From: Eledone cirrhosa
Taxonomy: Eukaryota
Assembly (NCBI GenBank): GCA_964016885.1
Contig: OZ024753.1
Location: 40,858,001-40,922,000 of the forward strand
DNA length: 64,000 nucleotides
Direction of reading: 5' to 3'
This document shows, one piece after another, positions 30,543 through 33,235 of the stretch. Each line of letters opens with the position of its first letter. Positions within the stretch are counted from its first letter, which is position 1. Position numbers and translations under genes: made by a program. The notes below the pieces were generated by a model that worked only from the letters and a program-made list of their open reading frames with translations, made no database searches and had not been told where the DNA came from.

Positions 30543-30813
30543 ATATATATATATATATATATATATATATATAATACATTTAGAAACACACAGATACATG
30601 CGGACACACACATATATACATGAATGCATCCGCACCCAACTGTGAGTTAAGGGTGCCAACTTCACCGATGTTGCTCAATGAATGACTGGGACAGACCAAT
30701 TCAGTTTGAACCAGACTGAACCAGTATCAGAGTTAAAAATACATTATGAAGAGAGAAGAAACATTTAGATATAATTAGTAATAAAATGTATCATACCTAA
30801 ACTGTTCCTAAAT

Positions 30814-30901
30814 TCCTCGACTACGTAGTTTCGTGGCATAAACAAAAACAATATATCAAAGATATAGAGTCCTTGCGAGGTCTGCCGACTTATCAAGAGG
30901 A
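30814..30901 (-). ncRNA. Type I hammerhead, U3-A8 core variant (unit 1)
   Basis: TCCTC TTGATAA GTCGGCA...TGCCAC GAAA CTACGTAGT C GAGGA on minus. Confidence 0.75.
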
Positions 30902-31404
30902 TACCTCATTTTACTAGTCTCAAGAACGCGTCTACACGACGTGAGAAAGAATCCCAAAAGGCGGAGGGGGAGATAGTCACGCGATATAACGGTCGAGAAA
31001 CAGAGCTAAGCCTCTTATAACCACGAAAAAAATACCACGGAGGCGGAGGGGGTATTCATATCGAGGCCGCAGAAGAGGTAGTGAAGAAGGCGAGAAGTAT
31101 GAGTAATGGAAGCTTTCCAGTTGTCCCCACACTTCAAAGATTGCTCGACCAGAGGGAGTTATTAATACATTTAGAAACACACAGATACATGCGGACACAC
31201 ACATATATACATGAATGCATCCGCACCCAACTGTGAGTTAAGGGTGCCAACTTCACCGATGTTGCTCAATGAATGACTGGGACAGACCAATTCAGTTTGA
31301 ACCAGACTGAACCAGTATCAGAGTTAAAAATACATTATGAAGAGAGAAGAAACATTTAGATATAATTAGTAATAAAATGTATCATACCTAAACTGTTCCT
31401 AAAT

Positions 31405-31492
31405 TCCTCGACTACGTAGTTTCGTGGCATAAACAAAAACAATATATCAAAGATATAGAGTCCTTGCGAGGTCTGCCGACTTATCAAGAGGA
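31405..31492 (-). ncRNA. Type I hammerhead, U3-A8 core variant (unit 2)
   Basis: Identical to unit 1. Confidence 0.75.
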
Positions 31493-31995
31493 TACCTCAT
31501 TTTACTAGTCTCAAGAACGCGTCTACACGACGTGAGAAAGAATCCCAAAAGGCGGAGGGGGAGATAGTCACGCGATATAACGGTCGAGAAACAGAGCTAA
31601 GCCTCTTATAACCACGAAAAAAATACCACGGAGGCGGAGGGGGTATTCATATCGAGGCCGCAGAAGAGGTAGTGAAGAAGGCGAGAAGTATGAGTAATGG
31701 AAGCTTTCCAGTTGTCCCCACACTTCAAAGGTTGCTCGACCAGAGGGAGTTATTAATACATTTAGAAACACACAGATACATGCGGACACACACATATATA
31801 CATGAATGAATCCGCACCCAACTGTGAGTTAAGGGTGCCAACTTCACCGATGTTGCTCAATGAATGACTGGGACAGACCAATTCAGTTTGAACCAGACTG
31901 AACCAGTATCAGAGTTAAAAATACATTATGAAGAGAGAAGAAACATTTAGATATAATTAGTAATAAAATGTATCATACCTAAACTGTTCCTAAAT

Positions 31996-32083
31996 TCCTC
32001 GACTACGTAGTTTCGTGGCATAAACAAAAACAATATATCAAAGATATAGAGTCCTTGCGAGGTCTGCCGACTTATCAAGAGGA
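31996..32083 (-). ncRNA. Type I hammerhead, U3-A8 core variant (unit 3)
   Basis: Identical to unit 1. Confidence 0.75.
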
Positions 32084-32582
32084 TACCTCATTTTACTAGT
32101 CTCAAGAACGCGTCTACACGACGTGAGAAAGAATCCCAAAAGGCGGAGGGGGAGATAGTCACGCGATATAACGGTCGAGAAACAGAGCTAAGCCTCTTAT
32201 AACCACGAAAAAAATACCACGGAGGCGGAGGGGGTATTCATATCGAGGCCGCAGAAGAGGTAGTGAAGAAGGCGAGAAGTATGAGTAATGGAAGCTTTCC
32301 AGTTGTCCCCACACTTCAAAGGTTGCTCGACCAGAGGGAGTTATTAATACATTTAGAAACACACAGATACATGCACACACATATATACATGAATGCATCC
32401 GCACCCAACTGTGAGTTAAGGGTGCCAACTTCACCGATGTTGCTCAATGAATGACTGGGACAGACCAATTCAGTTTGAACCAGACTGAACCAGTATCAGA
32501 GTTAAAAATACATTATGAAGAGAGAAGAAACATTTAGATATAATTAGTAATAAAATGTATCATACCTAAACTGTTCCTAAAT

Positions 32583-32670
32583 TCCTCGACTACGTAGTTT
32601 CGTGGCATAAACAAAAACAATATATCAAAGATATAGAGTCCTTGCGAGGTCTGCCGACTTATCAAGAGGA
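32583..32670 (-). ncRNA. Type I hammerhead, U3-A8 core variant (unit 4)
   Basis: Identical to unit 1; the array is truncated 19 nt upstream of it. Confidence 0.75.
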
Positions 32671-32780
32671 TACCTCATTTTACTAGTCTTTTTACTAGAA
32701 GTGTGGGGACAACTGGAAAGCTTCCATTACTCATACTTCTCGCCTTCTTCACTACCTCTTCTGCGGCCTCGATATGAATA

Positions 32781-32873
32781 CCCCCTCCGCCTCCGTGGTA
32801 TTTTTTTCGTGGTTATAAGAGGCTTAGCTCTGTTTCTCGACCGTTATATCGCGTGACTATCTCCCCCTCCGCC
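32781..32873 (+). promoter_or_regulatory. Putative internal Pol II promoter of the 591-bp unit (GC boxes + TATA)
   Basis: CCCCCTCCGCC at 32781 and 32863, TATAAGA at 32814-32820, ~110 nt upstream of the hammerhead on the same strand. Confidence 0.3.
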
Positions 32874-32931
32874 TTTTGGGATTCTTTCTCACGTCGTGTA
32901 GACGCGTTCTTGAGACTAGTAAAATGAGGTA

Positions 32932-33019
32932 TCCTCTTGATAAGTCGGCAGACCTCGCAAGGACTCTATATCTTTGATATATTGTTTTTGTTTATGCCAC
33001 GAAACTACGTAGTCGAGGA
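32932..33019 (+). ncRNA. Type I hammerhead, U3-A8 core variant (inverted copy)
   Basis: Stem I TCCTC 32932-36 / GAGGA 33015-19; core TTGATAA 32937-43; stem II GTCGGCA / TGCCAC; GAAA 33001-04; palindromic stem III ACTACGTAGT; GTC cleavage after 33014. Confidence 0.8.
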
Positions 33020-33235
33020 ATTTAGGAACAGTTTAGGTATGATACATTTTATTACTAATTATATCTAAATGTTTCTTCTCTCTTCATAATGTATATATAT
33101 ATATATATATATATATATATATATATATATATATATATATATATATATAATATATATATATATATATATATATATATATATATATATATATATATAATAT
33201 ATATATATATATATATATATATATATATATATATA

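Follow-up and report, generated by a model that had tools for sequence, protein, structure and literature searches.

A two-armed insertion of a 591-bp hammerhead repeat in Eledone cirrhosa and its probable relation to Penelope-like elements

The insertion in the window

The window analysed here is a 64,000-nucleotide stretch of the Eledone cirrhosa genome (contig OZ024753.1, positions 40,858,001 to 40,922,000 of the forward strand), and single positions below are those of the window. It contains an array that repeats from 30573 with a period of 591 bp and a last step of 587 bp, caused by a 4-bp deletion in unit 4 (Table 1). Positions within the unit (q1-591) are counted on the reverse complement of 31163..30573. 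An initial annotation had described 3.6 units of 591 bp and, in inverted orientation, a further partial copy, with (TA)n on either side, and the period, the unit boundaries and the flanks bear out this description. It had not recognised that the inverted copy is the second arm of one insertion event. Arm 1 is truncated at its 5' side at unit position 244 and ends at site A, unit position 590/591. The 8-bp insert at the head-to-head junction looks like templated end-joining. ORFs inside the element reach 91 aa at most, none is for a reverse transcriptase (RT) joined to GIY-YIG, and a tblastn comparison of two genomic Penelope-like element (PLE) proteins with the window returned no match.

Table 1. 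Coordinates of the insertion and of its predicted features in the window
Feature	Position	Strand	Remark
(TA)n target, left	30540-30573	.	adjoins arm 1
Arm 1, 3.58 head-to-tail units	30573..32689	-	RNA 3' end at site A, 30573
Unit 1	30573-31163		
Unit 2	31164-31754		identity 99.8%
Unit 3	31755-32345		identity 99.7%
Unit 4, partial	32346-32689		identity 98.9%
165-nt tail between inferred RT start sites B and A	30574..30738	-	on arm 1; arm 2 is without it
Head-to-head junction insert, 8 bp	32690..32697	.	repeats sequence a few bases away
Arm 2, inverted partial unit (397 bp, unit positions 29-425)	32698..33094	+	identity 100%; RNA 3' end at site B, 33094
(TA)n target, right	33092-33236	.	adjoins arm 2
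Hammerhead 1, type I, U3-A8 core, palindromic stem III	30814..30901	-	predicted cut after 30819
Hammerhead copy 2	31405..31492	-	predicted cut after 31410
Hammerhead copy 3	31996..32083	-	predicted cut after 32001
Hammerhead copy 4	32583..32670	-	predicted cut after 32588
Hammerhead copy 5 (arm 2)	32932..33019	+	predicted cut after 33014

Several other repeats lie beside the insertion. Directly after the right (TA)n tract, at 33241-33716 (+), is the 5'-truncated 3' end of a LINE with an open frame that includes YGSETWTL, which we take to be of RTE type. Members of a short inverted-repeat family flanked by (TA)n occupy 33738-33912 and 35160-35300. This family holds a hammerhead-like 3' half (GAAAC, a long stem and GTC), has matches in 30-33 sampled loci, and is possibly another non-autonomous PLE family with a stem III that is stable in the monomer. 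A long imperfect inverted repeat with an internal GAAACCGATT adjoins the left (TA)n tract at 30330-30535 and has no other copy among the sampled loci.

The U3-A8 hammerhead of the unit

Every copy of the unit holds a type I hammerhead at q263-350 with C17 at q345. Its stem I is 5 bp long and open-ended, and its core reads U3 U4 G5 A6 U7 A8 A9 followed by GAAA and by U16.1 C17, with a Watson-Crick 3-8 pair. Stem II consists of G10.1-C11.1, one bulge and a long distal extension, while the 10 nt of stem III form a perfect palindrome (duplex -12.9 kcal/mol) and are followed by GUC. As far as sequence can tell, the core positions expected of a type I hammerhead (3-9, G12-A13-A14, A15.1-U16.1 and H17) are all present. 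The hammerhead with U3-A8 that the initial annotation had placed in each unit is therefore found, with its fold elements and GUC, in every copy, and the C17 positions given there on the minus strand (30819, 31410, 32001 and 32588) match ours, with a further one at 33014 on the plus strand. That annotation did not include the palindrome of stem III, which appears to mark a dimer-type hammerhead, as a stem III of this kind is described as characteristic of hammerheads that function in dimeric form (PMC4209133). Two features that it had treated as unusual are already covered by published work. The U3-A8 pair is a known natural hammerhead covariation (Perreault 2011; PMC3088659) carried by some 1,300 PLE-type hammerheads of Schistosoma (PMC4209133), and 591 bp falls within the 51-972 bp spanned by animal retrozyme units (Li et al. 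2026, bioRxiv 10.64898/2026.07.22.740005).

Folding constrained to the hammerhead gives -20.7 kcal/mol versus -21.8 kcal/mol without constraint. Taken alone, the 106-nt hammerhead segment is no more stable than its shuffles (z -0.78), and the whole unit has a z of -6.06 against shuffles on the ribozyme strand and of -1.32 on the opposite strand. In each of nine aligned copies the predicted fold has site B (q412-424) base-paired to stem III and the cut site (q337-350). Such a pairing would hold the ribozyme off; because the paired positions are nearly invariant, we offer this off-switch as a prediction only.

A search with the Rfam hammerhead models, which had been proposed as a check, gave no hammerhead up to E=10 (four of four hits) and none among the 150 of 172 matches listed in another scan. 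The matches were microRNA-like or other chance hits, and the long stem II together with the variant core is the likely reason. A second proposed check, on covariation of the stems, held in part: 96% of stem cells are paired compared with 30-53% in slid controls, but covariation does not exceed that of shuffles (77/500), and for this reason the structure rests on invariance.

The invariance extends over subfamilies that have diverged by 18-25%. In 29 older copies that were picked by similarity of the whole unit, the majority base differs at 0 of 35 positions in the core and proximal stem II versus 97 of 543 other positions (Fisher p=0.002). One pair of stem I reads U-A, U-G or C-G in different subfamilies, and in a third subfamily UUGAUAA is kept in 29 of the 30 motifs found by the search pattern. 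Loss of U3-A8 from other copies, which would have spoken against the initial reading, is thus not what is seen, and the constancy of the core suggests that the ribozyme is under selection.

Other hammerhead-like cores were seen at L100, L141, L142 and the L006 flank. One belongs to another repeat flanked by (TA)n, with a CTGAAGA...GAAA core, and others to short palindromic elements with CTGATGA...GAAAC cores.

Two fixed ends, two arms and one haplotype

The window copy is one of thousands of young, dispersed copies of a small non-coding mobile element. The exact 14-nt motif made up of GAAA, stem III and GUC occurs 8,149 times in the 3.0-Gb genome versus 7 times for a reversed control, which supplies the copy number that the initial annotation had asked for, and many units at 99-100% identity are scattered over different contigs. 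That the array is an artefact of assembly is very unlikely in view of these thousands of dispersed copies and of 1,448 contigs from one public run (possibly the assembly's own source) that cover the unit, unit-to-unit joint included. Four runs of unrecorded kind were examined for the unit. In record 9 of run X4, which is labelled as a second organism and is of unrecorded library kind, the unit forms a single 621-nt contig that closes on itself (591+30). We do not count this contig as evidence because it would be expected from a circle, from a tandem array and from trace carry-over of a high-copy repeat alike.

The sampled loci are all 51 behind the first 100 motif matches on contig C1, 9 further top matches and 16 non-redundant loci out of 30 with near-identical units genome-wide. 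The 5' ends of arms are random, and intact 3' ends occur at only two positions, q590/591 (A) and q425 (B), which lie 165 nt apart and are each followed directly by (AT)n. This pair of fixed 3' ends was absent from the initial annotation. Exact patterns of an end plus (AT)n detect at least 2,839 B ends and at least 1,879 A ends (controls 2 and 2), both counts being lower bounds and the A pattern missing older subfamilies. Of the insertions with a single arm, 18 end at B, 16 at A and 2 elsewhere. The median arm is 525 nt long, and 7 of 85 arms exceed two units. The largest insertion seen (L082, G000:C2:338169500-338179000) has arms of about 7.2 and 4.1 units, in which two variants recur once per arm, out of register.

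The 23 nt before end A are unchanged in the older subfamily (29 copies). AATGTAT-NNN-TAACTC spans both ends in the young subfamily, but we do not regard it as a fixed signal, since older subfamilies differ in its spacing and at one of its bases. Elsewhere in the unit, a repeated GC-box-like motif, CCCCTCCGCCT, is found at q102-139 and q190-205 (for example window 31025-31062). It is a candidate internal promoter, and q102-139 is unchanged between subfamilies 18% apart.

Insertions with two head-to-head arms follow a single rule wherever both ends can be classified. Among 44 in the first set, 39 combine one A end with one B end and 5 have an end that is unclassifiable. The same combination is found in 15 of 23 in the older subfamily (about 80% identity; 8 unclassifiable), in 12 of 17 in the third subfamily (about 77% identity; 5 unclassifiable), and in all 40 head-to-head pairs taken from the end-pattern lists, 28 of which come from a stretch new to sampling apart from L085. 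No set of two-armed insertions contains an A-A or a B-B pair. Once overlaps are excluded (L044 doubled, L146=L069, L176=L066, L085 and pairs already sampled), there are about 90 distinct classifiable two-armed insertions, the one in the window included, and all are A+B. The longer arm is A in 19 insertions and B in 20, and junctions mostly have overlaps or inserts of a few bases. L050, which resembled a chimera with PLE family A, proved to be a short two-armed insertion in its own right. In 3 insertions the arms do not share any sequence, so an inverted arm is not a fold-back copy of its partner; the arms of one insertion are independent products.

All units and both arms of an insertion nevertheless carry one haplotype. 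At 22 polymorphic sites in segments of at least 96% identity, discordance is 2 in 3,039 within arms and 4 in 1,825 between arms, versus 25,861 in 242,104 (10.7%) between insertions, the pairs compared being not independent of one another. Each of 21 rare variants recurs in all segments of its insertion that cover the site, and L081 carries 5 rare variants in all 6-7 segments of both arms. Across 36 insertions with at least 3 segments, 93 variants are common to all segments, 68 are private and 6 are partly shared. The six, one of which occurs in units 2 and 3 of the window, hint at some local duplication or conversion.

These observations bear on the idea that arrays and inversions arise from events at the DNA level, such as unequal crossover or fold-back of cDNA, after a short insertion, with the hammerhead a decayed relic of a pLTR. 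Local amplification has been proposed (bioRxiv 10.64898/2026.07.22.740005), and the rare variant that units 2 and 3 of the window have in common would agree with it. We nevertheless regard a DNA-level origin as most improbable, as fixed 3' ends and random 5' ends recur at thousands of dispersed loci, the core is kept against 18-25% divergence, fold stability is strand-specific, and fold-back as the source of the inverted arm is excluded by the 3 insertions whose arms have no common sequence.

The passage of copies through the cut site helps to define the template. Copies that start exactly at the cut site number 5, compared with 4 at a matched GTC|G control site, and q342-349 has no indels in 209 segments. 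Reverse transcriptases of retroelements can jump between templates, and the copying of linear cleaved monomers, with arrays built by end-to-end jumps, would provide a monomer bottleneck without ligation. Such a process is difficult to reconcile with the lack of both a 5'-end excess and junction indels at the cut site, on which we reject the linear monomer as terminal template, or with the near absence of haplotype switching within arms; overall we judge it highly unlikely. Because ends do not pile up at the cut site and indels do not occur there, the template was covalently continuous over it, either as a ligated circle or as an uncut multimer.

An uncut linear multimer read from an existing array could be primed at the same two sites, with the hammerhead serving another role such as 5' processing or protein binding. 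Such a template would likewise be copied without a seam at the cut site and give homogeneous haplotypes, and the predicted pairing of site B with stem III and the cut site would hold the ribozyme off. Furthermore, in the one purified PLE system, PAc, hammerhead cleavage is dispensable in vitro and unprocessed RNA is the main substrate (PMC11167929). However, arms as short as the median would shrink arrays with each round, yet arms of about 7 units exist (L082), and a weak test found no in-register variants common to both arms against 28 differences. We consider an uncut multimer unlikely, though a good deal less so than the linear monomer. Since arms are mostly short and those of about 7 units exist, some step from monomer to multimer is needed, and a circle would be the simplest such step.

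Co-resident Penelope-like elements and the proposed cycle

A search of the genome for GIY-YIG gave 10,596 candidates. Sampled ORFs combine an RT with a C-terminal GIY-YIG and a CX4CxxC linker, which has been tied to Neptune and Nematis PLEs and to a bias for microsatellites (PMC8557442), and on sequence grounds the PLEs of this genome appear Neptune-like. At least five RT+GIY-YIG families (L126, L131, L135, L137; L091-L094, L115, L143; L114, L117, L119; L128; L144) have hammerhead-like motifs with a U3-A8 core (TTGA(A/T/C)AA) 3' of the ORF, mostly with a stem III made of the palindrome ACCGGU, and terminate in pyrimidine tracts followed by (TA)n. In one of these families GCAA replaces GAAA. 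L128, which has an open frame of 1,096 codons, and L131 are autonomous and two-armed, with one tailed and one tail-less end and tails of about 40-60 nt. The unit has the U3-A8 core, the palindromic stem III and the pyrimidine-rich ends in common with these PLEs. At the level of DNA similarity, at least six RT+GIY-YIG families tried as partner gave nothing real beyond an 18-bp match in L143, nothing convincing was found in 50 of 150 GIY-YIG loci listed, and no autonomous PLE resembling the unit lies beside 60 older copies. PLE fragments near older copies (L147, L156, L168, L181) and L116 appear to be adjacent by chance through their common (TA)n targets.

Like the metazoan non-LTR retrozymes (Cervera and de la Pena 2020, PMC7229834; Li et al. 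2026), the family consists of tandem non-coding units with one type I hammerhead each, is without LTRs, and has thousands of copies with few units per array. Unlike them, its unit has a U3-A8 core that a CUGANGA descriptor misses and a long distal stem II, and it is predicted to self-pair and block its ribozyme, which most metazoan retrozyme circles are not (PMC7229834). Retrozymes are reported to form circles (PMC7229834), and 8 of 9 Xenopus retrozyme dimers were without cleavage in vitro (bioRxiv 10.64898/2026.07.22.740005), a result that counts against the cycle proposed below. The retrozyme accounts examined contain no fixed A and B ends, inverted two-armed insertions or (TA)n targets, and the words "inverted" and "microsatellite" occur 0 times in the text of PMC7229834. 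A word search of an octopus repeat annotation (PMC13282606) likewise gave no "ribozyme".

The other comparison is with endonuclease-bearing PLEs (Neptune, Poseidon PAc and Naiad) and pLTR hammerheads (PMC4209133, PMC8557442, PMC3846280, PMC11167929). A purified PLE protein, which is predicted to be a dimer and assists its own hammerhead, nicks and extends both strands at AT-rich DNA, and its RT starts at two internal RNA sites whose spacing equals the genomic tail (PMC11167929). In contrast to these elements the unit is without an ORF, its tail is 165 nt rather than 30-40 bp, and both of its arms can be multi-lap. The pairing of a tailed with a tail-less arm is also strict in the unit family, whereas PAc in vitro shows no difference in start site between the strands (PMC11167929). 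Non-autonomous Chlamys PLEs such as MRC1 share with the unit derivation from PLEs and multicopy head-to-tail insertions, but most are without hammerheads and they resemble the 3' end of their partner (PMC8557442). The strict A+B rule, the 165-nt tail, proof of one template for both arms, and a retrozyme both tailed and inverted were not found in the mostly open-access main texts; their supplements may list cephalopod or U3-A8 retrozymes.

We consider the element very probably a non-autonomous PLE, that is, a non-LTR retrozyme. Like retrozymes, it forms a dispersed family of non-coding units in tandem with one type I hammerhead apiece, and it has the 5' truncation, partial tandems, inverted 5'-truncated copy and optional tail of PLEs. 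The initial annotation had likewise read it as a retrozyme with a link to PLEs, and that reading is strengthened by the two fixed 3' ends with their tail, 5' truncation, head-to-head inversion, the (TA)n target and the conserved core.

A cycle that joins an RNA circle with two-site priming seems, on balance, a probable account of such insertions; transcription, cleavage, the circle, the identity of the partner and two-site priming are the parts of it that we infer. Multimeric transcripts would be made from arrays, and the U3-A8 hammerhead, probably as a dimer formed through its palindromic stem III and perhaps assisted by a PLE protein, would cut them to 591-nt monomers that are ligated into circles. 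A Neptune-type PLE protein with RT and GIY-YIG would then act in trans and nick each strand of a (TA)n target. The two DNA ends would serve as primers for reverse transcription on one and the same RNA, one at site A and the other at site B, with help from microhomology between ATGTAT and (AT)n. Each RT would travel a random distance, up to about 7 laps, and microhomology or short insertions would then link the two cDNA ends in head-to-head orientation, while extension of a single primer would leave one 5'-truncated arm. In a more specific and more tentative form of this cycle, a PLE dimer would hold one 591-nt circle and allot A to one nicked strand and B to the other, the two RTs would follow one another in rolling-circle laps, and site B would block the ribozyme until protein binds. 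If true, this single mechanism of coupled twin priming on a circular RNA would account at once for the tails of PLEs, for inverted repeats and for the arrays of retrozymes.

The mechanism of tailed, tandem and inverted PLE insertions is named as open in PMC8557442, and retrozyme circles as PLE templates are a hypothesis in PMC7229834 and bioRxiv 10.64898/2026.07.22.740005. The present family is a retrozyme whose thousands of young copies bear the complete PLE insertion signature, and one A arm plus one B arm with one haplotype is a strict, countable rule that any mechanism must reproduce. Whole high-copy families escape descriptors limited to C3-G8, and U3-A8 is used by several PLE families of this genome. 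With 591 nt, no coding sequence and start sites that lie well apart, the unit is also a suitable template for the existing in vitro PLE assay. The headline features of the initial annotation were known already, but the family offers unusually clean genomic material on which to test how PLEs integrate and how retrozymes are mobilised.
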